Assembly (NCBI GenBank): GCA_009392915.1
Contig: CP045477.1
Coordinates: 775,633 to 839,632 of the forward strand
From: Candidatus Forterrea multitransposorum CG_2015-17_Forterrea_25_41
GTDB lineage: Archaea; Iainarchaeota; Iainarchaeia; Iainarchaeales; CSSED10-239
Direction: 5' to 3'
Length of the DNA stretch: 64,000 nt
The notes beneath the pieces are model-generated. The model was not told the origin of the DNA. It saw only the letters and a list, made by a program, of their open reading frames with translations, and did no database searches. The translations under genes and the position numbers were made by a program. Shown one piece after another: positions 3,367 through 53,344 of this stretch (the first letter of the stretch is position 1; each line of letters begins with the position of its first letter).

Positions 3367-6300
3367 TTAATGTCTTAATATTTTTTTCTTTTTCTCAGCT
3401 ATGGTTTTTTCTTTCTTTTTATTACCCAACCTTAAATAAGCATATAAACTAACGAATAAAACTACAATAATTGTAATTAAAATATATTGTGTTTTTGTTG
3501 AATTTTTCGAAACAGGATTTGTTTGTTTTAAAACATAAATTACATCAAGATATTTTTCATCATCATAATTTGTTTTTGCAAAATTAAGTGTTTCAACATC
3601 ATATTCTTTTTTTTGATAATCTATTATTTCTTTTTTAGCATCATCTTTTATTTCAATTAAACCAGAGGTTAAATTATCATAATCTGATTTTATTTTTTCA
3701 ATTCTATTTATTGTTTCTAAAGAAATGGCATTAAGTGCACCTTTGTAGTCTTTTTCATTATATTTTTCATCAAAGTTAGATAATTCTTTATTGAAAAGTA
3801 CACTTTCTAAAAAAGCATAATTTTTTTCTAATCTTTTTGCATCGTTTTCTGTAATTCCAGAAAAATACCCAATTGAATAAAGATCAGTTAAAGTATATGT
3901 TTCATATAACAAATATGTTTTTGTAATTATTTCATTAATTTTGTCTTCTTCTAAATTATTTGTTATTGGGTTAATGTAATAATAAAGTTCTTCAGCTTTT
4001 TCTTTTAGTTTCTGATTAATTATATCTTTAATTTCTGTAATGTTTTTATCTTTACTTAATAAATCTAAATCTATGTTTTCTAAATTATTTTCATTAATAA
4101 TTTCATTAAGTTCTTTAAATTCAGCAATTTCTAAACTTTTAGTGTCGTTTTGTAAGTCCTTTTCTCTTTTTTTAATATCTATTAATAACTGTATTAAATC
4201 TTTTTCTGCTAAAACCATATTTTGATATTTATTACTTTCTATTTTTTCTAATTTGTTTTCTTCAAAAGAAGTTAGTTCTTTTTGATAAATCTCATTTAAA
4301 GTAATTAAATAATTTTCTTCAATAATTTGATAATGTTTGTTTTTTTCTAATAGTTTTTGTAAGGTGTTATAATAACTGTAAATAGTTTCTATTTCATTAA
4401 TACTATATTCTTCAGAATATGGTTTGTCCAACAAATATTTCAATTCTTTAATTGATTCTTTTTGAATATCTAAAAATCTAGTGTTTCTAAGCTCTTCTGC
4501 TGCTAAAATTATTTCTCTAATTTCTTCATAAACTTTATTCTTTTCAATTAATGTTTTTAAAACAAATTCTAAAACTTCATCTTTTTTAATCTCTATATTA
4601 TAAATTAAGTTTCCATTTTCTTCAAATAAAGTAATTTCTTTATTATTTTTATAAAAAGTATTAATTTCGTTTTCTTTAGTTTCTTTAATAATTAATTTTT
4701 GATTAATTTTTTCAAAAAATTTATTCTTTAAAGAAATATTTGTTGTTGTAATAAATTTATCACTACTTATTTCTTCAATATTTTTAGATAGGTTATTTTC
4801 AAATACAGGTCCATAGACATAAAATTCATTTTCTTTTTTTGTATAATAATAAATATTATTTTCTTCTATAATAACATCTTCATTTTTAGATATAAATCCA
4901 TCAATAAATAAAAGTGAATCATATATTCCTTCTACTTCGTTTTCAATTGTAATTTTAATAATACTTTCTTTTAATGATAAATAAATTATTTCATAATTTA
5001 TATTTTTATTATTCTCATAATCTACTAAGAAATAATTTTTACCAGGATATATAGTGTGTATCTTTATTTGTGTTTTATTAATAAGTAACCCAGGATCTTT
5101 AGATACTAGGTTTAAATAATTATTTTCTATTTCAATATTTAAAATAATTTCAGAGAAGTTATTTATTAATTCAAAATAATATTTATCATCTATTTTTTTA
5201 ATAGTGTAGTTTTTATTTTCTTGAATGATCTTTTTAATGATTAAATCTATTTCTCTTTCAATATTATTTATTTTTTCTTGATTTTCATTAATATTTATAA
5301 TTAACTCAACATTATTTTTTTGTTTTATTTCCTTTACATCTTTTTCAATTTCACTAATTATTTCATAATTTTCTTCAAGTTTATTTTCAACATATATTTC
5401 ATTAATTTTATTTTCTATTTCTTTAATTCTTTTTTTAATTATAATTATTTTTTCATTACTTTCAAGTTTATAATTTATGTTGTTAATGTGTTCTAAACAA
5501 TCTTCTTCTGTTGAATAAATATATAATTCATAATCTTTAACTTCTTCAATTTCGCTTTCAATAACACTATAAATTAACTCTTGGCAATTTTGTATTTCAT
5601 TTGCATTTTTTATTTTTTCACAATAATTTAATTTTTCAAGAAGATTGTCACTTTCTTTATATTGACTAATTAATCTTGATATATATAGATTACTTTGTTC
5701 TTCTAGATTTTCAACTAAAATATCACAAGCAAACAGTTGAGAGTTTTCTAACTTTTCTTTTTCAACAATTTCTTGGTTTTGTAAAATTTCTAAATTAATT
5801 TCTTTTAATTCTGATAAATATTTTCCAAAAGTAATTGTTTTATTTTCAAAGTAATTTTTTTGTTTTAAATAATAATTATATTTTTCAGTAGTTAAATATT
5901 CTTTATTTTTTTCAATTTCTTTTTGATAATCTTCTATTTTATTATAAATTACATCTAAATTTTCAGTTATTCTATTATTAATAATTATAAATTCTGTAAC
6001 TAATGATTTTTCTTTTCCAACCAACTTATCCATTAAAATATAAAAATTATATCCATCTAGTTTATCTAAATTATAGTTTATGTTTCTTAAATCTTCTATG
6101 TTAGATAATTTTTTATATACAAAATTATTTATTCTTAAAATTTCAGGAAGATTAATTTCTTGTGAATTAATTTCTTTTTCATAGATTTGTAAATAATACA
6201 AAGTTAGATCAGATACATTTTCTTTTGCAAGATAGGTTTCTCTAAAACCTAATTCTTTAGAATATACATGTAATTCTTTAATTTCTTGATTTACTTTTGA

Positions 6301-6855
6301 TAAATAACTTTCATTTTCTATTTGTTTTTTCATAAAATTAATATTATCATTTAATAATATATAATCTTGAAATATTTCTTCTTCAGGAATTAGGTTAACT
6401 TCTTGCTGTTCTAAAAATAAGGTATAATCAATAATAAGATACATGCTTTTTTTAGTTGCATTATCAACATATGAAAAGGTTTTAGAAAAAAGGTCCATTA
6501 CATCATTATAATTATCTAAAATTGTTTTGATGTTCTCTTTTCTACACCCTTCATTCAATAAATCTAGTTCTTTTTTAGTAAGTGTATAATAATAATGACT
6601 GGATGCTAAGTAATTTTTATAAGTATCTATATTTTGACTTAAAGAAAGAGGTATTTTGTTATTTTTTTCAATAGATAATTTTTCAATTTCAGTAAAACAT
6701 TTATTTTGAGAAGTACAATCATCAATAGAAGTAGAGGAATAATGAGTTAAAGCAAGACAAGCTTGCTTTTCTCTAGTGGTTATAAATTCAAGGCAACCTG
6801 AAAGGCTTACTAGTAAAATCAATAAAAAATATATGTATATTTTTTTATCAATCAA
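3367..6855 (-). CDS. Large (1162 aa) coiled-coil-rich surface protein with N-terminal signal/lipobox-like LSGC and C-terminal TM anchor
   Basis: N-terminus MIDKKIYIYFLLILLVSLSGC, long E/K/N-rich heptad-like body, C-terminal TM ILITIIVVLFVSLYAYL followed by a K-rich tail. Confidence 0.4.
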   Translation of the reverse strand: MIDKKIYIYFLLILLVSLSGCLEFITTREKQACLALTHYSSTSIDDCTSQNKCFTEIEKLSIEKNNKIPLSLSQNIDTYKNYLASSHYYYTLTKKELDLLNEGCRKENIKTILDNYNDVMDLFSKTFSYVDNATKKSMYLIIDYTLFLEQQEVNLIPEEEIFQDYILLNDNINFMKKQIENESYLSKVNQEIKELHVYSKELGFRETYLAKENVSDLTLYYLQIYEKEINSQEINLPEILRINNFVYKKLSNIEDLRNINYNLDKLDGYNFYILMDKLVGKEKSLVTEFIIINNRITENLDVIYNKIEDYQKEIEKNKEYLTTEKYNYYLKQKNYFENKTITFGKYLSELKEINLEILQNQEIVEKEKLENSQLFACDILVENLEEQSNLYISRLISQYKESDNLLEKLNYCEKIKNANEIQNCQELIYSVIESEIEEVKDYELYIYSTEEDCLEHINNINYKLESNEKIIIIKKRIKEIENKINEIYVENKLEENYEIISEIEKDVKEIKQKNNVELIININENQEKINNIEREIDLIIKKIIQENKNYTIKKIDDKYYFELINNFSEIILNIEIENNYLNLVSKDPGLLINKTQIKIHTIYPGKNYFLVDYENNKNINYEIIYLSLKESIIKITIENEVEGIYDSLLFIDGFISKNEDVIIEENNIYYYTKKENEFYVYGPVFENNLSKNIEEISSDKFITTTNISLKNKFFEKINQKLIIKETKENEINTFYKNNKEITLFEENGNLIYNIEIKKDEVLEFVLKTLIEKNKVYEEIREIILAAEELRNTRFLDIQKESIKELKYLLDKPYSEEYSINEIETIYSYYNTLQKLLEKNKHYQIIEENYLITLNEIYQKELTSFEENKLEKIESNKYQNMVLAEKDLIQLLIDIKKREKDLQNDTKSLEIAEFKELNEIINENNLENIDLDLLSKDKNITEIKDIINQKLKEKAEELYYYINPITNNLEEDKINEIITKTYLLYETYTLTDLYSIGYFSGITENDAKRLEKNYAFLESVLFNKELSNFDEKYNEKDYKGALNAISLETINRIEKIKSDYDNLTSGLIEIKDDAKKEIIDYQKKEYDVETLNFAKTNYDDEKYLDVIYVLKQTNPVSKNSTKTQYILITIIVVLFVSLYAYLRLGNKKKEKTIAEKKKKILRH

Positions 6856-10576: not shown

Positions 10577-11536
10577 TTATTTTTTATCATCTTTTAAATA
10601 CGCTTTAATAAATGGTAAATAATTTTTAAGATCATCAGGATCTACTTTATTTGCAACTTTTTTAACATCTTTAGTTTTACTAATTGTATCTGTGACTTTA
10701 TTTAATAAAGATGTAAGCTCCATTGGAAAAATAATTTTAGAAGATTGTCCTTCTGCCATTTTTTCTAAAGCTTTTAAATAATAATAGATAACTGTTTTTT
10801 CTGATAATTGATCAGTTGCATCTTTAACAGCTAAAATTTTTGCTTTTTCAGATTCTGCAAGTTCATAAACAGCTAGTTTTTTCTGAACTGCTGCTTTTTG
10901 TTCGTGCATTGCCATTAAAATATCATCTGGTATTTTAATATCAGTAAGTTCAACAGAAGTTACTTTTACACCCCATTCTTTAGAAACACTTTCTAAGGCT
11001 TTTTTAAGTTTAGTATTAATCTCTTCAATGTTTGTAATTACTTCTGTAATTTCAAATTCACCCACAACATCTCTAAGCATTGCAATAACATACATTGTTG
11101 ATGCTTTTCTATAATCTTCAACACTAACTATAGAATTAATTATGCTTTCTTTATCATTTCTAACAGATATAAATAATACACCATCTATTCTAAGTTGGAT
11201 GTTATCTTTTGTTAAAACATTTTGTGGAGGAATGTCCATGGTTTCTACTCTTAAAGTTACAAGGTTTGGTTTTTCAATCAATGGCCATACAAAAGTCCAT
11301 CCTGGTCCTCCAACTCTTCTAACTTTTCCAAATCTAAAAATTACTGCTCTTTCATAATCTTTTAAAGTAAGTATTATTTTTAATTTAAATATTAAGAATA
11401 TAAAAAACACAATTCCTAAAAACCAAAAAACACTAGTTTGTATTTTTTGACTTAAATAAAAAATAGCGATTATTAAACCTAAAACAAAAAGGGTCAATAT
11501 TGTAAAGATAAAATTTTTAAATTTAGATTCATTCAT
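10577..11536 (-). CDS. SPFH/band-7 (stomatin/prohibitin-like) membrane protein
   Basis: N-terminal TM helices followed by an SPFH core (ERAVIFRFGKVRRVGGPGWTFVWPLIEK...LTKDNIQLRIDGVLFISV) and a C-terminal coiled-coil. Confidence 0.8.
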   Translation of the reverse strand: MNESKFKNFIFTILTLFVLGLIIAIFYLSQKIQTSVFWFLGIVFFIFLIFKLKIILTLKDYERAVIFRFGKVRRVGGPGWTFVWPLIEKPNLVTLRVETMDIPPQNVLTKDNIQLRIDGVLFISVRNDKESIINSIVSVEDYRKASTMYVIAMLRDVVGEFEITEVITNIEEINTKLKKALESVSKEWGVKVTSVELTDIKIPDDILMAMHEQKAAVQKKLAVYELAESEKAKILAVKDATDQLSEKTVIYYYLKALEKMAEGQSSKIIFPMELTSLLNKVTDTISKTKDVKKVANKVDPDDLKNYLPFIKAYLKDDKK

Positions 11537-13588: not shown

Positions 13589-14635
13589 TTATTCTTTCTT
13601 CTCTATTGTATATGTCTTTTTCTTTTGATTAATTTCAGTAATATATAGTTTAATATTTTTTTCTTCTAAATAATTATTTATTTTTAAAATAATTTCTTTA
13701 GAATCTATTTTTTTAAAAGTAGCTTTTTCAATAATTTTATTTATTTGGTCTACAAGTGTAAAATTAGAATAAATAAATTCTCCTTCTTTTTCAAGAGTCT
13801 TTATTTTTTCTTCAAACTGTTCTTTTTTATCTTCTTGTGATTTTAGTATTTCTGAAACTTTGTTTTTTTTAATAGTTTCTTTAACTTCTTCTTTTTTTTC
13901 AAAGAAATTTTTAAACTCGTTTTCAAAAGAATTAAATATATCTTCTCCATCTCTTGAAATTATAAAACTATTTTTATTATTTTTATTGATTTTTTTTACC
14001 CCTGGGTTTTCAAGCTCATAATTTTGGTAAATATTTTCAATTAATTGCTTTTTAGAATCTAATATATCATTAATTTCCATAGGAGCAATATTATATTTTC
14101 TTGAAAGCACTCTAATTTTTTCAGGATCTGTTAAATCTTTTAATTCTTCTTCTATTTCTTTTTTATTTTTAAGTTTAATATCTTCTCCAGAAGGGAAATT
14201 ATAAGTTTCTCCTTTCTGAATAGTTCTATCTTTCCATTCTTCTTTTTGTCTTGAGGTTATTATCTTAAAATTTTCATCTGTTAAAATTACATTTGATTTT
14301 GAAAAGAATTCAAATATTAAATAATATTTATCAAGTTTAAAACAAATTACTTTATTATTTTTATCTTGATAGATATCATGTATTCTTTGATTATATAATT
14401 TTTTTTTAAGATATTTTTCAAATCCTAAAATTTCTGAAACTGGAAAAGTATGTTTTGGTAAAAAACATATTTCAGGAGTTATAATTAGTTCTTTTGTTTT
14501 TTTAGAATGTATTTTTATTTTCCATATCTTGTTATCAATAGTCTGCACATTATTAATATATCCTAAATTAAATTCTTCTTTTAATTTTTTAGCGATATAA
14601 TAAAAAACAGTACTTGTGGTTTGTATATTTTCCAT
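13589..14635 (-). CDS. NFACT-N domain protein (N-terminal module of an NEMF/Rqc2/FbpA-like ribosome quality-control factor), stand-alone
   Basis: Aligns by eye to the NEMF N-terminus: YINNVQTIDNKIWKIKI versus RVNNVYDVDNKTYLIRL; SNVILTDENFKII versus GNIVLTDYEYVIL; GETYNFP versus RERYP. Confidence 0.65.
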   Translation of the reverse strand: MENIQTTSTVFYYIAKKLKEEFNLGYINNVQTIDNKIWKIKIHSKKTKELIITPEICFLPKHTFPVSEILGFEKYLKKKLYNQRIHDIYQDKNNKVICFKLDKYYLIFEFFSKSNVILTDENFKIITSRQKEEWKDRTIQKGETYNFPSGEDIKLKNKKEIEEELKDLTDPEKIRVLSRKYNIAPMEINDILDSKKQLIENIYQNYELENPGVKKINKNNKNSFIISRDGEDIFNSFENEFKNFFEKKEEVKETIKKNKVSEILKSQEDKKEQFEEKIKTLEKEGEFIYSNFTLVDQINKIIEKATFKKIDSKEIILKINNYLEEKNIKLYITEINQKKKTYTIEKKE

Positions 14636-14638
14636 AAA

Positions 14639-15703
14639 TTATTCATTACTATAATCTGTATATTCTAGGTTGTTATAAGAATATATTTTTTTAACTATTT
14701 TTTTATTGTTAAACCTATATTCTTCATAAAGTTTGTTTACATCAGTATTTTTATAAGTATCCATAGGTATATTTTGAACAATATCTAAAATATAATAAGT
14801 TTCTTTAATCTTTGTACTTACAAAAGAATGTACTTTATCATCTTCAAGTAAAACTACTTCTATGCTTGATAAGTTATCTTGCATTCCTTGCATTACAGAA
14901 CAAAGAATAACTGATATTGTTTGTTCATCGCAAATTTTTTCAGAAATAATTTTTGAAAAATCCATCCAAAAAATAACTTTTAAATCATTTTCAATAACAT
15001 CAATTTCTGTTCTTAGATAATTATATATTTTTCTAAGTGTTGTTAAATAATCTTTATTATAATCATAAGCAATTGGTGTGAATTTTGAAATTATACTTTT
15101 TATTGTTAAATCATTTGGTTTTACCATTTCTTTAAGTTGAGAAATAGTTTTTCTTTCATCTTCGTTTATTAAATCTTTATATTTATTAATAATTATTGAA
15201 TAATATTTAATTTTATTAATATCTTCTTCGCTAGCTTTTGTTTCTGTATTTTTTTTAATATTTTTAATAAAATCTTCAAGTTCTTTAATTCTTTCTTTTA
15301 AATTTAAATTTTCAACTTCAAGTTCACTAACATCTCCTTTTATTTTAAGATTTTTAAATCTTAGTTCTTCTTCAGGAGAGTCATCTTTTTGTATTTTTGT
15401 AAGGTTTGAAACTTCTAAATTAATTTTAGTTTCTATTTTTTTAAGTTCGTCATTAATTTCTTTTAATGTTTTTGAATATATTGATTCATCAATACTTTTT
15501 GCTGTATATCTATAAGAAAGTTCTTTTTTTTGTTCTAAAAGTTCTTTTTTCTTAGTATTTAAATTTTCAATAATCTGCCATGTTTTTTGTTCTTTGTTAA
15601 TAGGGTCTTTTTTCTTAACTCTTAAATTAACTATAGCTATAATTGTACCAAATGACAAAAATATAAAAATTATTATTAATATCTGTGAAAAATTAATTGA
15701 CAT
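14639..15703 (-). CDS. N-terminally membrane-anchored coiled-coil protein (hypothetical)
   Basis: TM ILIIIFIFLSFGTIIAIV followed by a long K/E-rich coiled-coil. Stop lies 4 nt before the NFACT-N gene. Confidence 0.3.
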   Translation of the reverse strand: MSINFSQILIIIFIFLSFGTIIAIVNLRVKKKDPINKEQKTWQIIENLNTKKKELLEQKKELSYRYTAKSIDESIYSKTLKEINDELKKIETKINLEVSNLTKIQKDDSPEEELRFKNLKIKGDVSELEVENLNLKERIKELEDFIKNIKKNTETKASEEDINKIKYYSIIINKYKDLINEDERKTISQLKEMVKPNDLTIKSIISKFTPIAYDYNKDYLTTLRKIYNYLRTEIDVIENDLKVIFWMDFSKIISEKICDEQTISVILCSVMQGMQDNLSSIEVVLLEDDKVHSFVSTKIKETYYILDIVQNIPMDTYKNTDVNKLYEEYRFNNKKIVKKIYSYNNLEYTDYSNE

Positions 15704-25156: not shown

Positions 25157-27490
25157 ATGTTTGCTATTTCAAAAAAAGGAATAAGTCCTTTAATTGTAAC
25201 TATTTTAATTGTTGTTGTAATAGTCATTATTGTGTCTGTTTTATTATTGTGGGGTAAATCTTTCACTTTAGATAATTTATCTCTTTCTGAAAGAGTTTTT
25301 GAAAAATCTAGTCTTTCTGATTTTGTTTGGCAAGATAATTTATTTGAAAAAAATTTATTTATTAAAAATACAAATTCTAAATTAGGTGCGTCAATTATTG
25401 GTTATAAAATAAATAGTTCCTTAGATTATCCTTTTTTAAATGAATATAGATACTTAGAAACTGAAGTTTATTTGGGAAAAAACAGTATTGCAACAATTCC
25501 TTTAGTTTGTATTCCTGAGAAAAATTTTACAATAGAATTAATTACTTCCAAAGATGAGTATATTACTGTGCCTGTTACTTCAAAGTCTTTTGATGCAAGT
25601 GATTGTACTTTTAAAGGAGAAATTACAAATCCTTCTGAAGATTTTAGTATAAGGTCTGGAGATTCTATTTTGTTTGACTCTTTGGCATTAAATACTTCTG
25701 GGAATGAAACTTATTTATGGGTATCTGATAAAGATGGAACTTTAAGTACTGATAAAAATTTTACAATAAGTTCTTTATCTGTAAACAATCATTTAATTAC
25801 TTTAACAATCACAGATTTTAATTCAACTATTGAAAAATCTTTGTCTGTTGTGATTCATCCTCCTTTAAGTTTAAGTATTTTATCTCCAATTGATGATTCT
25901 GGTTTTTTAGTAAACACCTCTATTGATTTTAATTCAATTATTGATAATAATTTAGGTGATTATTCTTGTAATTGGCAATCAAATCTTGATGGTTTGTTAA
26001 GCACCAATTGTATTTTTAATTCTTCAAGTTTATCTGTGGGTAATCACACTTTAACTTTAAATGTAATTGATGATGTAGGAACTAGTAGTGTTACTTCTGA
26101 TATTTTAGTTAAGAATAGTTTTACACCAATCATTAGTTCTCCTTTAGAAGATTCTATTTTTGTAGTAGGAAATAACATAAATTTAATTGGTACAACAATT
26201 AATTCTTTTGGAACTTATACTTGTTCTTGGGATTCAAATATTAATGGAAGTTTAGGTACTGGTTGTAATTTAAATGTTGATGATCTAAACATAGGTGCTC
26301 ATGAAATAACTTTAAATATAACAGATGATTTAGAAACAAAAACTGCAGTAACAACTATTGTAATTAAAGATCATTTACTTCCAGAAATAGTATCTCCTAT
26401 TGCAAGTTCTACTTCAACAGAAGGAAATACAGTTAATTTTTTAGGGAGTGCAACTAATACATATGGAAGTTACACTTGTTCTTGGGATTCAAATCTTGAT
26501 GGAAATTTAGGTGTTGGTTGTGATATAGATGTTTCTGATTTAACTTTAGGAACTCATGAAATAACTTTAAGTGTAACTGATGATTTAGAAACTGTTTCAA
26601 TTTCTCAAATTAATTCTGTGATTGTTATTGTGTATGTTGATGATTTAATTAATTTAGTTTTCAGTGATAGTGTTACAGGTTATTCTTTTTCTGGTAGTAC
26701 TTATAATTATAATGATTTATTAATTTTAAATAGTTCTAATACTGTAACTGTTACTCCGACTGGGGCTGGAACAATAACTGTAAATGGTTCTACTGTTTCC
26801 TCAGGTTCTCCATCAAGTCCTATTGATTTAAGTGATGGTACTGAAAAAACAATTACCATAGAAGTTAGTGATGTTGATAAGTATTCTAAAACTTATACTT
26901 TGAGATTAACTAAAATAGTAACTACTGGTGGAACCATAACTAATGGTACAGGTTATAGAATTCATAAATTTACTTCAAATGGATCATTTACCTCTAACAT
27001 CCCATTAACTGCTGAACTTTTAGTTATTGGTGGAGGTGGAGGTGGTGGTGGATATGATGGTGGTGGTGGTCGTGCCGGAGCGTTATATTATAGTGCATCT
27101 TATTCAATACCTTCAGGTTCAACAAATGTTGTAATTGGTGCTGGAGGTCTAGGTGTAAATTATACAAAAGGATCAGCAGGTACTGCTTCTTCTTTTGGAG
27201 CAATATCTAAAGCTGGAGGTGCTGGTGGGGCTTTAACAAGTCCTAAATCTGGTGGTGCAGGTTGTGGTGGTGGAGGAAGTGCCTTTAATGCAGGACTGGG
27301 TTATGGTCTTGAAGGTCCTGGTTGTACATATAGTATTACAGGAACTCCTGTTGTATATGGTCTAGGAGGAAGAGGAGGTAATGGAGGGAGAACAGATGGT
27401 GCTACAAACACAGGATCAGCAGGTTGGGCTGGCGGAACTAGAGGTGGTCATGGTGCTGATGGAGTTGTAATTGTTAGAATAAATTCTTAG
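25157..27490 (+). CDS. Large (777 aa) class III signal peptide surface protein: tandem Ig/PKD-like repeats plus C-terminal glycine-rich domain
   Basis: N-terminus MFAISKKGISPLIVTILIVVVIVIIVSV. Three to four modules with Y(S/T)C(N/S)W(Q/D)SN(L/I)DG...GC...L(S/N)(V/I)G.H(E/T)(I/L)TL. C-terminal 180 aa is more than 40% Gly (GGGGGGGGYDGGGGRAGA...). Confidence 0.5.
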   Translation: MFAISKKGISPLIVTILIVVVIVIIVSVLLLWGKSFTLDNLSLSERVFEKSSLSDFVWQDNLFEKNLFIKNTNSKLGASIIGYKINSSLDYPFLNEYRYLETEVYLGKNSIATIPLVCIPEKNFTIELITSKDEYITVPVTSKSFDASDCTFKGEITNPSEDFSIRSGDSILFDSLALNTSGNETYLWVSDKDGTLSTDKNFTISSLSVNNHLITLTITDFNSTIEKSLSVVIHPPLSLSILSPIDDSGFLVNTSIDFNSIIDNNLGDYSCNWQSNLDGLLSTNCIFNSSSLSVGNHTLTLNVIDDVGTSSVTSDILVKNSFTPIISSPLEDSIFVVGNNINLIGTTINSFGTYTCSWDSNINGSLGTGCNLNVDDLNIGAHEITLNITDDLETKTAVTTIVIKDHLLPEIVSPIASSTSTEGNTVNFLGSATNTYGSYTCSWDSNLDGNLGVGCDIDVSDLTLGTHEITLSVTDDLETVSISQINSVIVIVYVDDLINLVFSDSVTGYSFSGSTYNYNDLLILNSSNTVTVTPTGAGTITVNGSTVSSGSPSSPIDLSDGTEKTITIEVSDVDKYSKTYTLRLTKIVTTGGTITNGTGYRIHKFTSNGSFTSNIPLTAELLVIGGGGGGGGYDGGGGRAGALYYSASYSIPSGSTNVVIGAGGLGVNYTKGSAGTASSFGAISKAGGAGGALTSPKSGGAGCGGGGSAFNAGLGYGLEGPGCTYSITGTPVVYGLGGRGGNGGRTDGATNTGSAGWAGGTRGGHGADGVVIVRINS
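25955..26640 (+). repeat. Intragenic tandem repeat, period about 250 bp, about 2.7 copies (encodes the repeated Ig/PKD-like modules)
   Basis: Near-identical nucleotide blocks beginning tattcttgtaattggcaatcaaatcttgatgg (about 25960), tatacttgttcttgggattcaaatattaatgg (about 26215) and tacacttgttcttgggattcaaatcttgatgg (about 26468). Confidence 0.6.
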
Positions 27491-48063: not shown

Positions 48064-49092
48064 ATGAATATTATAAAAATAGATTATAAAACAAAAGAAA
48101 TTGTTTTCATTCCTCAAACAATAGAAGATTTATGGGTTATAAAAACTATTGCTCAAGAAGGAGATGTTATAAGTGGTAGTTCATATAGAAGACTTAAAAA
48201 TGAACAAACAGGAGATAGTGATAGAAAACCTGTTTTTGTGAAAATTGATATTGAAAAAAAAGATTATTCTTCAACTCTTAACTCTTTAAGATTTACTGGA
48301 AAAATATTTTTTTCAAAACCAGAAGACTTTGCACCCTTAGGAGAATATCATACCTTAGAAGTTTCTCTTCAAAATAAATTTTCAATTACTAAAAAAGAAC
48401 TTTTTGATTTTCAAATTGATCTTTTAAAAAATGCATCTTCTTTAAAAAATAAAATTAATGTTGTTATTTTAGATGATGAAATTTCTGAAATTTATATGTT
48501 ATCTGGAATTTCAAATGAAAATATTGCAGTTATAAAATCAGGTAAACATGGAAAAAGATATAATCAATCATTTGATTTTACTAACTTTTTTGAATCTATT
48601 TATTCTGTTGTTTCAAACAATAAAGAACAATTGATTATTGCAGGCCCAGGAGGTACTAAAAATTTATTTTCAAAATATTTAATTGAAAAGTATAGTCTTT
48701 CATCTTTAGTTGTAAATCTTTCAAGTACTTCTAAATCTGCAATTAATGAACTTTTAGGTAAAAAAGAAATTTTAAAATTTTTTGAAAATTCAATTATTGT
48801 AAAAGAAAAAAACATGATTGATTCTTTTAAAGAAAATCTTGGAAAAGATAATTCTCTTGCAATCTATGGTTATACTGAGATTTTAAATATTTTAAGTACA
48901 GGTGCCTGTGATTTTATTTTAATATCTTATTCTTTTTGGCAAAAAGATATTGATAAAGTACAAAACTTAATTAAAGAAGCTGAGAAATATAAAACAAAAG
49001 TTCATGTGGTTGATGAAAGACATGAAGAAGTAATTAAAACATTAAATTCTTTTGGTGGAATTATTTCTGTTTTAAGATATAAGTTATTTTAA
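48064..49092 (+). CDS. pelA: Pelota (Dom34) ribosome rescue factor
   Basis: N-terminal IEDLWVIKTIAQEGDVISGSSYRR and central/eRF1-like domains. 342 aa. Confidence 0.75.
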   Translation: MNIIKIDYKTKEIVFIPQTIEDLWVIKTIAQEGDVISGSSYRRLKNEQTGDSDRKPVFVKIDIEKKDYSSTLNSLRFTGKIFFSKPEDFAPLGEYHTLEVSLQNKFSITKKELFDFQIDLLKNASSLKNKINVVILDDEISEIYMLSGISNENIAVIKSGKHGKRYNQSFDFTNFFESIYSVVSNNKEQLIIAGPGGTKNLFSKYLIEKYSLSSLVVNLSSTSKSAINELLGKKEILKFFENSIIVKEKNMIDSFKENLGKDNSLAIYGYTEILNILSTGACDFILISYSFWQKDIDKVQNLIKEAEKYKTKVHVVDERHEEVIKTLNSFGGIISVLRYKLF

Positions 49093-49773: not shown

Positions 49774-50313
49774 ATGGCTGTTATAAAGAAAATAAATGAT
49801 TCAATAAGAGTAAAAATTTTATCTGCTATGACAAGAAAAGGAGCTGTTGTTCCAAATATTAGGCAGATTAAAAAAATTACTGGTTTTCATAGAGCTACAA
49901 TTAAATCTTCAATTGATTTTCTTGAAAATGAAAAATTTGTTTTAGGGTATCGTCCCTTATTAGATCCTTTAGTTGCTGGTTATAATTTAAAATCATCTTC
50001 TTATTTTCAAGTTGATCTTTCTTTAAAAGAAAAACAAAAAGAACTTCTTGATATTTTAAAAAAAGATAAAAATGTTTTATCAGCTTCACAAGTAATTTCT
50101 GATGGAGATTTTAATATTGCAATTTCTTTTCTTTCAAAAAATATTGAATCTTTTCATAATAGTTTAAGAGAAAAATATGTTTACAAAATACCGAACTATT
50201 ATGATTTTATAAAAAAATCTTCAAGTTATTATTTATCTTCTCCAATCTATAAAGATAAAAATGAAATTGATGTGTTAATTGATTTATTAAATGAAGAACA
50301 AGGAACTGAATAG
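49774..50313 (+). CDS. Winged-helix transcription regulator-like protein with C-terminal effector-like domain
   Basis: N-terminal HTH (IRVKILSAMTRKGAVVPNIRQIKKITGFHRATIKSSIDFLENEKFV). 179 aa. Confidence 0.35.
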   Translation: MAVIKKINDSIRVKILSAMTRKGAVVPNIRQIKKITGFHRATIKSSIDFLENEKFVLGYRPLLDPLVAGYNLKSSSYFQVDLSLKEKQKELLDILKKDKNVLSASQVISDGDFNIAISFLSKNIESFHNSLREKYVYKIPNYYDFIKKSSSYYLSSPIYKDKNEIDVLIDLLNEEQGTE

Positions 50314-50315
50314 AA

Positions 50316-51125
50316 ATGTCTGTTGAAATCAATTATACTTTATCTGCTGGAAGAAATGCAGAAAATAAGTATTTAGAACGAAATAAGTTTAAATCTAAAC
50401 TAGATGGTGCAAATAAAGCTATATTAATAACTAAACAAAAGATTGATTCTCAAGATAAAAAAATTATTGAAAAACAAAAAAATAAAATCAATGTTTTAAA
50501 AAAGACTGAGAAGAAAAAAGAATGGTATCATAAATTTAGATTTTTCTTTACAACTAATGGTTTCTTAGTATTAGGTGGAAAAGACACTAAAAATAATGAT
50601 TTCTTAATAAAAAAACATTTAAAAGAAAATGATCTTTATTTTCATGCTGATGTTCATGGAGCACCACATGTTATTTTAAAAAATGATTTAAAAAAAGAAA
50701 TTCTTGAAGAAGATAAAATAGAAGCCGCATGTTTTGCTTTAATTTTTTCTTCAGCTTGGAAAACAAAATCTTTTTCAGCAGAAGTTTATTCTGTTTCTCC
50801 TGATCAAGTTTCAAAAACTGCAAATACAGGTGAATCTTTAGGTTCAGGGGCTTTTGTTATAAGAGGAAAAAGAATATATTATAAAAAATTAAACTTAAAA
50901 TTAAAGTTAATTTATGATTCAAAGCTTGGTCTTTATCCTTTCCCAGTACTTTTAACTTATAATGATAATTTAAATAAAGATGAATTTTATTTAATTCCAG
51001 GTAGTTTAAAGAAATCAGATGTTTCAAAAGAAATTAAAAATTTATATTTTAAAAAAGGAATATCTTTATCTCAAGAAGAAATAGACTCTTCACTTCCTCC
51101 TGGATCTTTTGAATTAATTAAATAA
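50316..51125 (+). CDS. NFACT-R (DUF814) domain protein: stand-alone C-terminal module of an NEMF/Rqc2/FbpA-like factor
   Basis: WYHKFRFFFTTNGFLVLGGKDTKNNDFLIKKHLKENDLYFHADVHGAPHVIL matches the DUF814/NFACT-R consensus (W..fr.f.ssdG..i.vGrna.qNe.l........D.wfHa...GSHvil). Confidence 0.6.
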   Translation: MSVEINYTLSAGRNAENKYLERNKFKSKLDGANKAILITKQKIDSQDKKIIEKQKNKINVLKKTEKKKEWYHKFRFFFTTNGFLVLGGKDTKNNDFLIKKHLKENDLYFHADVHGAPHVILKNDLKKEILEEDKIEAACFALIFSSAWKTKSFSAEVYSVSPDQVSKTANTGESLGSGAFVIRGKRIYYKKLNLKLKLIYDSKLGLYPFPVLLTYNDNLNKDEFYLIPGSLKKSDVSKEIKNLYFKKGISLSQEEIDSSLPPGSFELIK

Positions 51126-51208
51126 CTATTAAAACACTTTGGTTCATAAATATATATATTATTTTATTAAACTTATTTTTTAAAAAAAATTTAACTTTGT
51201 GATAATTA

Positions 51209-53344
51209 ATGGTTGAAAAAAAACAAGACTCAATTAAACTAAAAGTACAAGAAGCTTCTGAAGATTTTGTAGGTAAAAACATAGTTAAGCTTGACATTAT
51301 GGTTAAGCAAAAGCTAAATATAATTTCAGGAGATATTATTTTAATTAAAGGTGATGATTTTACCGCTGCACAGGTTTGGCCTGAAAAAAATAAAGCTGGT
51401 GAAGAAAACATTATTAGAATGGATCAATACACTAGAAAAAATGCTAATGTATCTATTGGTGATTTTGTAACTATTAAAAAAATAGAACCTGTTGTTGCAA
51501 AAGAAATTGTTTTAGCACCTTTAAAAGAAGTTAATTTATTTTCTGAAAATCAAGATCTTATTATTAAAAAGAATTTTTTAGGTAGACCTTTTGTTAATGG
51601 TAACCATGTAATGATTAATATTTTTGGTTCAAATTATCTTTATGAAGTTACAAACACATCTCCTTCAAAAATAGTAATTCTTTCAGAAGAAACAAATCTT
51701 ATTATAAATAAAAAACCAGCTTCTAAAAAAGAAATTAAACAAATTATTGGTTATGAGGATGTTGGAGGGTTAAAACCTGAAATTGAAAAAATAAGAGAAA
51801 TGGTTGAGCTTCCTTTTAAATATCCTGAATTTTTTGAAAAATTAAATGTAACTCCTCCAAAAGGAATTTTACTTTATGGACCTCCAGGAACAGGAAAAAC
51901 TTTACTTGCAAAAGCTTTATCAAATGAACTTAAAGCAAACTTTATAGGTATTGATGCTCCACAAATAATGGCAAAGTTTGTAGGCGAAGCTGAAGAAAAA
52001 TTAAGAAATATTTTTAAAAAAGCACAAGCAAAAACACCTGCAATTATTTTCATAGATGAAATTGATGCAATTGCTCCTAAAAGAGATGGGTTTATTTCTG
52101 AAGTTGAAAAACGTGTTGTTGCACAACTTTTAGCACTTATGGATGGTACTTCTTCAAGAGGGGATGTAATTGTAATTGGTGCAACTAATAGACAAGATGA
52201 TATTGATCCAGCACTTAGAAGACCTGGAAGATTTGATAGAGAAATTGATGTTAATGTTCCAAATGAAGAAGGTAGACTTGATATTTTAAAAATACACACT
52301 AGAAATGTACCTTTAGTAAAAGATGTAAACTTAAAAAAAATAGCCCAAGTAACTCATGGTTTTGTAGGAGCTGATCTTTCTGCTTTAGTTAAAGAAGCTG
52401 CAATTATTGCAATTAAAAGTAAAATTTCTGATATTTCTTCTCCTAAAAAAGAAATTTCTTCAAAAATTTTAGAAAACTTAGCAATCTCTAAAGAAGATTT
52501 TGAAAAAGGTTTAAAAGTAGTTCAACCTTCTGCTTTAAGAGAAGTTTTTGTTGATCTTCCAAATATAAATTACTCTGATTTAGGAGCTTTAAAAGAACAA
52601 AAAGAAACTCTTTCTGAAATAATTAATCTTTCTCTTGAAAGAAAAAGTCTTTTACAAAAATATAATGTTAAAACCATTAAAAATATTTTAATTTATGGTC
52701 CTCCAGGAACTGGAAAAACTTCTTTTGTAAAAGCAACTGCAAAAGAACATGGTATTAATTTTTTATATGTTAAAGGTCCTGAAATCTTTAATAAATGGGT
52801 TGGAGAATCAGAAAAAACAATTAGACATATTTTTAAAAAAGCTAAATCTGTCGCTCCTTCAATTTTGTTTTTTGATGAAATAGATTCTCTTACTCAAAGA
52901 CATGATGATTCTATTGGAAACATAAAAGTTCTAGATCAACTTTTATCTGAACTTGATAATTTAGCTGGAAAAGATGTGTTGTTTATATGTGCTACAAATA
53001 GACCTGAAATTATAGATAAATCTTTTTTAAGAAGTGGAAGAATAGATAAATTTATGGAATTTAAACTTCCTACAAACAAAGAAAGAAAAGAAATATTATC
53101 CCTTCTTTTATCAAAAACTCCACATGAAAAAATAGATTTAGATGAGATTGTAAATCTTACAAATAATTTTTCTCCTGCAGATTTAAATCTTTTAATTACT
53201 GAATCTGTATTTTTAACTTTAAAAGAAAATAAGTATAAAGAATCTAAATTAACAAAAGAAGCTATCTTAAAAACTTATTCTAAATTAAAAAATAAAGTCT
53301 CACAAGGTCAAGTTCTTTCAGGAATATCTAAATATGTTAATTAA
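51209..53344 (+). CDS. cdc48: Cdc48/VCP-like AAA+ ATPase (two AAA domains)
   Basis: N-domain, D1 [13 protein letters not shown] with DEIDAI, D2 [13 protein letters not shown] with DEIDSL. Confidence 0.9.

Follow-up and report, generated by a model that had tools for sequence, protein, structure and literature searches.

Among the closest described systems are human NEMF, yeast Rqc2 and Bacillus subtilis RqcH, factors of ribosome-associated quality control (RQC) that are single chains, for which Ala/Thr tailing has been demonstrated and which are available as structures on the 60S or 50S subunit (9gy4, 8aaf, 7aqc and 7as8). The archaeal RqcH (aRqcH) proteins, represented by that of Pyrococcus furiosus (Q8U137, P0135), comprise NFACT-N, HhH, a first coiled-coil segment (CC1), the small M domain, a second coiled-coil segment (CC2), NFACT-R and a C-terminal domain, in this order; tailing has been demonstrated for no archaeal protein considered here. 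Here, we describe two genes in a 64,000-nt stretch of the genome of the archaeon Candidatus Forterrea multitransposorum (contig CP045477.1, positions 775,633 to 839,632; hereafter the window) whose products, the N-half and the C-half, together have the domain content and order of aRqcH. The window has a G+C content of ~24 % and a gene content typical of an archaeal chromosome (EF-1alpha, PolD DP1/DP2, Orc1/Cdc6, primase, SecDF, pelota, S17e and Rpo6), and no tRNA genes were found in it.

In B. subtilis, the 50S subunit is touched only by NFACT-R, at the A-site finger, and by the distal coiled-coil/M region, at uL11/H44, while NFACT-N/HhH contact the tRNA only and are dispensable for 50S binding; in the eukaryotic proteins NEMF and Rqc2, M and CC2 are separated by large insertions, and in bacteria M is reduced to a vestigial hairpin (10.1101/2020.09.03.281279). 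A D-R motif of NFACT-N (B. subtilis D97/R98, NEMF D96/R97) nears the tRNA anticodon. The NFACT core architecture has been characterized as resistant to domain accretion and conserved in all three domains of life, with no fission mentioned, and CCDC25 as a partial duplicate that coexists with full-length NEMF (PMC4075521). Split genes are known from DPANN archaea, the split-gene discussion in PMC6349945 naming the Nanoarchaeum reverse gyrase, alanyl-tRNA synthetase (AlaRS), DNA polymerase and topoisomerase I, and Dph1/2 in several phyla. Term searches found RqcH/NFACT neither in that discussion nor in the main text of a fusion/fission survey (PMC11237513), and a literature search on split NFACT, aRqcH and RqcH together with DPANN returned no description of such a split, nor any paper that treats RqcH in DPANN or employs the name aRqcH, though further papers may exist. 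The split RqcH appears to be newly described here; gene fission in DPANN is an already known theme.

Two unlinked genes tile one archaeal RqcH

The C-half gene encodes the free-standing 269-aa DUF814/NFACT-R protein that had been noted in a preliminary description of the window, and profile searches upheld that assignment. Besides the motifs WYHKFRFFFTTNGFLVLGGKDTKNN and LYFHADVHGAPHVILKN, the protein contains a full-length match to Pfam NFACT-R_1 (PF05670, DUF814; aa 73–184, profile 1–112/112, E value 4.5e-34, 117.8 bits against a cutoff of 29.8), within which H110, G115 and P117 are invariant in the alignment of the C-half family. Overall, it corresponds to positions 381–643/645 of the NCBIfam model RqcH_arch (NF041120; E value 1.7e-76, 258.4 bits). 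The stretch after NFACT-R is covered by this match up to position 643/645 and was modelled by AlphaFold2 (AF2) as a folded strand/helix domain; a Pfam hit to NFACT-C (DUF3441), the extra domain that follows NFACT-R in the archaeo-eukaryotic NFACT branch, was not obtained there. In sequence searches, the C-half aligned to human NEMF 461–644 (E value 8e-29), and its closest full-length protein was P. furiosus aRqcH (Q8U137, 649 aa; 44 % identity over its residues 384–644).

An exhaustive phmmer search of the C-half against 1.84 billion representatives returned 2,892 relatives. About one third of the top 150 representatives are stand-alone C-halves aligned from residue 1, interleaved in the same list with proteins of ~600–700 aa that align from residue ~370–390. 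The C-half search yielded 70 clusters (32–93 % identity) with a common start residue, nearly all 247–275 aa in length (one of 368 and one of 151). The solo NFACT-R proteins CCDC25/Jlp2 likewise have a free-standing NFACT-R; the C-half adds to it an M-domain strand, CC2 and the C-terminal domain, has a complementary N-half partner and is closest to NEMF/aRqcH rather than of the CCDC25/Jlp2 type.

An NFACT-N gene ~36 kb away had also been proposed and is indeed present, 35.7 kb from the C-half gene and on the opposite strand. Pfam gave no match for its product at E≤0.01, and the N-half was recognized solely via NCBIfam, a custom hidden Markov model (HMM) and the structure model. It corresponds to RqcH_arch positions 6–375 (E value 2e-31, 109.5 bits) and aligned to NEMF residues 25–269 and 290–382 (3j92_u, E value 1.5e-3); in Foldseek, the model of the joined halves matched the FbpA N-terminal structures 5h3x, 3doa and 6pon (target-normalized TM 0.62–0.64). 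The N-half search gave 64 clusters, nearly all of 341–383 aa, and the N-half profile gave 146 hits, of which the 120 listed span 207–396 aa and include no full-length protein. The source names of this family include Iainarchaeum ('ainarchaeum'), Diapherotrites and Micrarchaeota.

The two halves tile RqcH_arch end to end and without overlap (6–375 and 381–643 of 645) and are therefore complementary fragments of one archaeal RqcH/NEMF homologue. Scanning the six frames of the window with the custom HMM revealed exactly one N-part and one C-part, and no second NFACT gene. Of the modules of the family, NFACT-R (DUF814), NFACT-N with HhH and, from AF2, CC1-M-CC2 were found, spread over two polypeptides. 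Relative to aRqcH, the window version differs in consisting of two polypeptides from unlinked genes rather than a single chain, in scoring below the 400-bit equivalog cutoff of RqcH_arch and in having N-K (N-K or N-R across its subfamily) in place of the exact DR motif. Because each half falls below that cutoff, annotation pipelines label them 'NFACT family protein' or 'hypothetical'. As a gene pair, the two ORFs jointly span a single-chain homologue with no overlap; both are conserved, occur together and are subject to selection (see below), in agreement with the suggestion that an RQC factor is split here between two unlinked genes. The features of the two loci are listed in Table 1.

Table 1. 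Features of the N-half and C-half loci, in window coordinates
Feature	Position	Strand	Remarks
RqcH N-half gene, 348 aa	13589..14635	-	NFACT-N, HhH, CC1, M-domain helix and strands b1-b2
N-half aa 233-346: CC1 helices (233-307), M helix (312-325), b1-b2 (331-345)	13598..13939	-	AF2 secondary structure
N94-K95, position of the tRNA-contacting DR motif (human NEMF D96-R97)	14351..14356	-	Alignment to NEMF
PRC-barrel gene, 86 aa	13320..13580	+	Pfam PRC, E value 1.5e-7; convergent with N-half gene, 8 nt from its stop
354-aa ORF	14639..15703	-	Hydrophobic N-terminus (by eye); directly upstream of N-half gene
RqcH C-half gene, 269 aa	50316..51125	+	ATG start; M-domain strand b3, CC2, NFACT-R, NFACT-C-like end
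C-half aa 2-56: M-domain strand b3 (aa 2-6), then CC2 helix (aa ~10-56)	50319..50483	+	AF2, alignment to full-length aRqcH
NFACT-R domain, C-half aa 73-184, with HADVHGAP motif	50532..50867	+	Full-length Pfam match
Winged-helix-turn-helix-like gene, 179 aa	49774..50313	+	Weak GntR helix-turn-helix hit (E value 8.5e-4), below Pfam cutoff
CDC48/VCP-type double-AAA+ ATPase gene	51209..53344	+	CDC48_N, CDC48_2, 2x AAA
Pelota gene	48064..49092	+	eRF1_1/2/3 domains; 1.2 kb upstream of C-half gene

Position of the cut and predicted docking of the halves

The boundaries were located in an alignment of the joined halves to 35 archaeal RqcH proteins of full length and to stand-alone halves (21 N-halves and 29 C-halves). 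Every aligned N-half ends in one common column, just past a strand (…KTYTIEKKE), and in the window protein the chain terminates directly after strand b2. Every aligned C-half opens with the next strand (M-x-VEINY…), followed by a conserved NA-x-x-Y helix start. Full-length archaeal RqcH proteins have only a short turn at this site, and relative to them the split halves have neither lost nor gained residues. Because nothing is missing or added at the cut, there is no remnant of an intein or linker; an origin by intein or trans-splicing was ruled out, as neither boundary carries extra sequence.

Modelling placed the cut in the b2–b3 beta-turn, a surface loop of the small M domain, which sits on the far tip of the coiled coil. 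When N-half and C-half were joined in native order, AF2 returned a model (pLDDT 94.2, pTM 0.76) in which junction 348/349 falls in the turn between strands E341–345 and E349–353, and in which the M domain, formed by helix 312–325 and three strands, caps the coiled coil H233–307/H358–404; E349–353 and H358–404 are C-half residues 2–6 and 11–57. The predicted fold and the HADxHGAP core are common to human NEMF, yeast Rqc2 and B. subtilis RqcH, with Foldseek E values for the joined model of 3.7e-32, 1.3e-26 and ~1e-19 to 1e-20, respectively, these being its best PDB matches; CCDC25 was matched at ~1e-5 over ~127 residues.

We also modelled a circular permutation in which the C-half precedes the N-half, separated by a 38-aa Gly-rich linker taken from another window protein (25157–27490, piece ~27023–27424), with a multiple sequence alignment (MSA) of half-proteins only. 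The permuted model (pLDDT 91.5, pTM 0.73) recovered C-half strand E2–6 (pLDDT 96) and helix H11–55 (pLDDT range 96–98), with both coiled-coil helices above 95 and a disordered linker (pLDDT <50), and is consistent with docking of halves that are not covalently continuous in native order. The split had been deemed relevant to how the tRNA- and 60S-binding modules can function in trans. The cut, however, lies inside the M domain rather than between two such modules, and the prediction is that the halves come together again via the coiled coil and a common beta-sheet instead of acting independently in trans.

Selection, distribution and origin of the split

The window sequence is metagenome-derived, and one split-type locus elsewhere (L053, see below) is cut by a contig end 175 nt upstream and could be a frameshift or an adjacent gene pair; we considered whether the split is a mis-assembly, a frameshift or a dying pseudogene. 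This is exceedingly improbable. The halves lie 36 kb apart on opposite strands, which excludes a frameshift, and exact copies are indexed in the assembly collection in 96 blocks for the C-half and 88 for the N-half. Both occur ~36 kb apart on ENA contig NODE_60_length_122069 and in the same gene order in JGI assemblies, so that the arrangement is identical in independent assemblies, of which dozens show it. The split is also conserved to ~33 % identity across many species-level genomes, a closed genome among them. Ratios of non-synonymous to synonymous substitution (dN/dS) against relatives that are 92–93 % protein-identical were about 0.1 (C-half 0.09, N-half 0.13), alongside 0.08 for pelota, 0.04 for CDC48 and 0.10 for the helix-turn-helix (HTH) gene in the same comparison. 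Both halves are thus under purifying selection.

With each GTDB species represented by a single genome, a scan yielded 576 confirmed relatives, of which the best 80 were analysed by sizing the ORFs on the DNA and seeking the N-part in the same ORF; 37 of these loci were split, 42 fused and 1 ambiguous. Split loci have an ORF of 255–296 aa with an upstream stop and no N-part, and no N-part was found within 10 kb of the C-half in any of the 37, a search that would have detected an intermediate with adjacent halves. Their NCBI titles include Candidatus Iainarchaeum, Micrarchaeia/Micrarchaeota and the closed genome GW2011_AR10 (CP010424), with a single Woesearchaeota and a single Altiarchaeales; among the fused loci are Thermoplasmata, Thermococci, Hadarchaeota, Bathyarchaeia and Thorarchaeota and also two DPANN-labelled metagenome-assembled genomes (MAGs), Parvarchaeota L073 and Aenigmatarchaeota L054. 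In the MAG ADurb.Bin336, the two halves are present on separate contigs; co-occurrence is thus shown for that genome and for the window organism, and elsewhere is inferred from the parallel N-half and C-half families.

These surveys bear on a second alternative, namely that the two ORFs are accessory fragments, partial duplicates beside a canonical full-length rqcH elsewhere in the genome. The 64 kb analysed are only a part of the genome, and a divergent paralogue may have escaped among the GTDB relatives, the best 80 of 576 having been retained. Nonetheless, the window holds no other NFACT ORF, and among the 80 GTDB loci no assembly appeared twice, the 37 split-type genomes included, though full-length RqcH proteins of unrelated archaea were recovered at 33–37 % identity. 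Full-length proteins were likewise absent from the listed hits of both half-protein searches and the N-half profile search. The halves are exactly complementary, where partial duplicates would tend to overlap, and both have a low dN/dS. Genomes of the clade also appear to be small (AR10 is complete at 1.24 Mb; other half-carrying contigs measure 0.95–0.99 Mb). Together, these observations make accessory fragments highly unlikely.

In a neighbour-joining (NJ) tree of the HMM-aligned C regions of the GTDB loci and the window, 37/38 split sequences fell into one clade, with two changes between the split and fused states (1–4 in 30 bootstraps); both this tree and the one described next are distance-based, with weak deep branches. 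The exception is L053 (QMZG01000016.1), the MAG labelled Altiarchaeales, which may have undergone a separate fission of its own or may be an adjacent pair of genes or a frameshift. The other NJ tree, built from 147 cluster representatives of the database (aligned with MAFFT, with the split state assigned by protein length), gave 13 changes and one clade of 44, and was set aside as uninformative because truncated metagenomic ORFs blur the classification. A single fission event is also indicated, independently of the tree, by the conserved gene order on both sides (see below). These comparisons with single-chain archaeal relatives, as had been suggested for the pair, support the split as a trait of essentially one origin across Iainarchaeota/Micrarchaeota-type DPANN archaea. 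RqcH/NEMF is a single protein wherever it has been studied. The split had been regarded as unusual; it is not peculiar to the window genome. It resembles the DPANN split genes of PMC6349945, as discussed there, in that an informational/translation gene is present as two unlinked ORFs in a reduced-genome archaeon. Unlike splits of the Nanoarchaeum type, the rqcH fission involves no intein, is old and clade-wide and is not confined to one extremely reduced genome.

Gene neighbourhoods

Both halves occupy second place in a closely spaced gene pair, and the two pairs are different. The HTH gene is joined to the C-half gene by the junction TAG-AA-ATG, its stop lying 2 nt from the C-half ATG, and at most split loci, even those at ~30 % identity, the gene immediately preceding the C-half is an HTH homologue. 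On the other side, cdc48 follows 83 nt downstream after an AT-rich gap. A CDC48-type ATPase gene on the same strand and ≤3 kb downstream of the C-half was present at 30/37 split loci vs 0/42 full-length loci, and the order HTH/C-half/CDC48 (49774–53344 in the window; loci L003–L082) is kept down to ~33 % C-half identity. Neither the HTH gene nor cdc48 was found near fused rqcH at any of the 42 loci. The eukaryotic RQC complex has Cdc48 among its core components; the conserved order could reflect a functional link in archaea or just the inherited synteny of one clade.

Pelota, the other ribosome-rescue factor, had been pointed out upstream of the C-half gene. It does lie 1.2 kb away, but this proximity is found only in close relatives, at loci with at least ~50 % C-half identity, while the clade-wide neighbours are CDC48 and HTH; the pelota neighbourhood was accordingly rejected as a functional link for the split clade. 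Separately, pelota is immediately downstream of full-length rqcH at five loci of Thermoplasmata-type genomes (L046, L070, L076, L079 and L080); at L070, for example, rqcH extends to 10810 and the match to pelota begins at 10827. This linkage differs from that in the window.

At the N-half, a convergent PRC-barrel gene (86–91 aa) follows in every N-half locus fetched (including L083, L088, L089 and L090), among them a 985-kb contig and a Micrarchaeota MAG. The PRC-barrel protein is 58–83 % identical where the N-half is just ~25–50 % identical, and no such gene was seen at fused or C-half loci. Upstream, the 354-aa ORF is joined to the N-half gene by TAA-TTT-ATG, with 3 nt between stop and ATG; it is kept in close relatives and absent at the distant loci L089 and L090, and no Pfam family scored above noise for it. 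By eye, its C-terminal part shows a candidate Cys...His...Asp pattern reminiscent of transglutaminase-like proteases.

The tRNA-contact motif and proposed assembly

At the position of the DR motif, the close subfamily of the window N-half (65 clusters) has NR in 43 clusters and NK in 22, while distant split N-halves have DR in 58/58, and full-length archaeal proteins have DR (62) or ER (17). Since the distant split N-halves keep DR throughout, the split itself did not relax the motif, and this pattern of residues points to a later, lineage-specific change. The tRNA-selecting function or choice of tRNA may be altered in the window's subfamily, because DR has been replaced by N-K/N-R and the N-half goes undetected by Pfam NFACT-N.

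We consider it probable that the two genes encode the subunits of a heterodimeric, functional archaeal RqcH, a homologue of NEMF/Rqc2. A further alternative is that the halves have become independent, sub-functionalized proteins that form no complex, the C-half being ribosome-bound alone, possibly with CDC48, and the N-half having drifted to another tRNA/RNA role. The genes are unlinked and on opposite strands, each coupled to a different upstream gene within a distinct conserved neighbourhood, as such independence would allow. The C-half has its own NFACT-R anchor (and 50S binding in B. subtilis is independent of NFACT-N/HhH), solo NFACT-R proteins exist in eukaryotes as CCDC25/Jlp2 (PMC4075521), and the N-half of the window's subfamily combines N-K/N-R in place of DR with divergence beyond Pfam detection. 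Against this, both halves retain a long coiled-coil helix and a share of the M sheet, with boundaries fixed clade-wide; had they been unused, one would expect a lone amphipathic helix of 45–75 residues and its orphan strand to have been trimmed away. Distant split N-halves retain DR in all cases, the AF2 model docks the halves without covalent continuity, and the C-half best matches NEMF/Rqc2 over CC2 and NFACT-R, not CCDC25. On balance, we regard independent sub-functionalization as unlikely.

Several points nevertheless weigh against a working heterodimer. The scan for a full-length rqcH reached over the 64-kb window only, and the RqcH_arch equivalog cutoff of 400 bits is missed by each half and by their sum (258 + 110 = 368 bits). 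The acidic residue of the DR motif is replaced in 65/65 close-subfamily clusters, and precomputed Pfam annotation misses NFACT_N in nearly all of this subfamily. Docking of the halves is a prediction read from pTM, pLDDT and DSSP, and the MSA of the first, joined model included full-length homologues. The association and RQC activity of the two halves are predicted rather than experimental, and archaeal RQC itself is only inferred (PMC9540759). Finally, the halves are probably transcribed separately, from two different promoters, and stoichiometric co-expression is not guaranteed.

If the two genes do encode a heterodimeric RqcH, a single rqcH would have been broken once, at the b2–b3 loop, in the ancestor of Iainarchaeota/Micrarchaeota-type DPANN; the 5′ half would have settled beside the PRC-barrel gene and the 3′ half between the HTH gene and cdc48, where it would have gained a start codon 2 nt past the HTH stop. 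According to the structure predictions, CC1 and CC2 would zip non-covalently into an antiparallel coiled coil, and C-half strand b3 would complete the three-stranded M-domain sheet. Going by its homology to NEMF, Rqc2 and the B. subtilis RqcH, the complex would bind large subunits that carry peptidyl-tRNA after splitting by pelota/ABCE1, with NFACT-R touching the A-site finger, the composite M domain touching the uL11 stalk base and NFACT-N/HhH gripping the tRNA anticodon stem-loop, and would extend the nascent chain at its C-terminus without a template, the tail serving as a mark for degradation. Because only NFACT-R and the coiled-coil/M region touch the 50S in B. subtilis, the N-half would reach the ribosome only via the coiled coil and M domain that it shares with the C-half, and the stalk-base contact surface would be present only in the heterodimer.

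An elaboration of this proposal, which we find quite doubtful, is that RqcH became, through fission, a system of two components whose assembly is conditional. The C-half would anchor on the obstructed 50S and might couple it to the Cdc48 unfoldase, as an archaeal equivalent of the RQC-Cdc48 link of eukaryotes that needs no ubiquitin, the N-half, with its PRC-barrel neighbour and altered motif, would be recruited separately, and assembly would regulate tailing.

Implications of a naturally split RqcH

As a naturally split version, a functional pair would indicate that RqcH can do without a covalent connection at the tip of its coiled coil, that two chains suffice to form the M domain contacting the ribosomal stalk base and that the tRNA-handling and ribosome-anchoring parts can be made separately, and it would offer a ready-made design for splitting or labelling RqcH/NEMF. 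With this pair, the split genes characteristic of genome evolution in DPANN come to include a factor of translation quality control, and the cdc48 neighbour provides a gene-context lead for an archaeal RQC pathway.

Other genes in the window

Three further window genes were recorded during the annotation. The protein that supplied the permutation linker (25157–27490, + strand; 777 aa) contains PKD, cadherin-like and Gly_rich_2 domains and long poly-Gly runs. A 1162-aa ORF (3367–6855, - strand) matched no Pfam family at E≤0.001. A MutL homologue (403–2157, + strand) comprises HATPase_c_3, DNA_mis_repair and MutL_C; mismatch-repair genes are uncommon in archaea, and this one may be a transferred gene.

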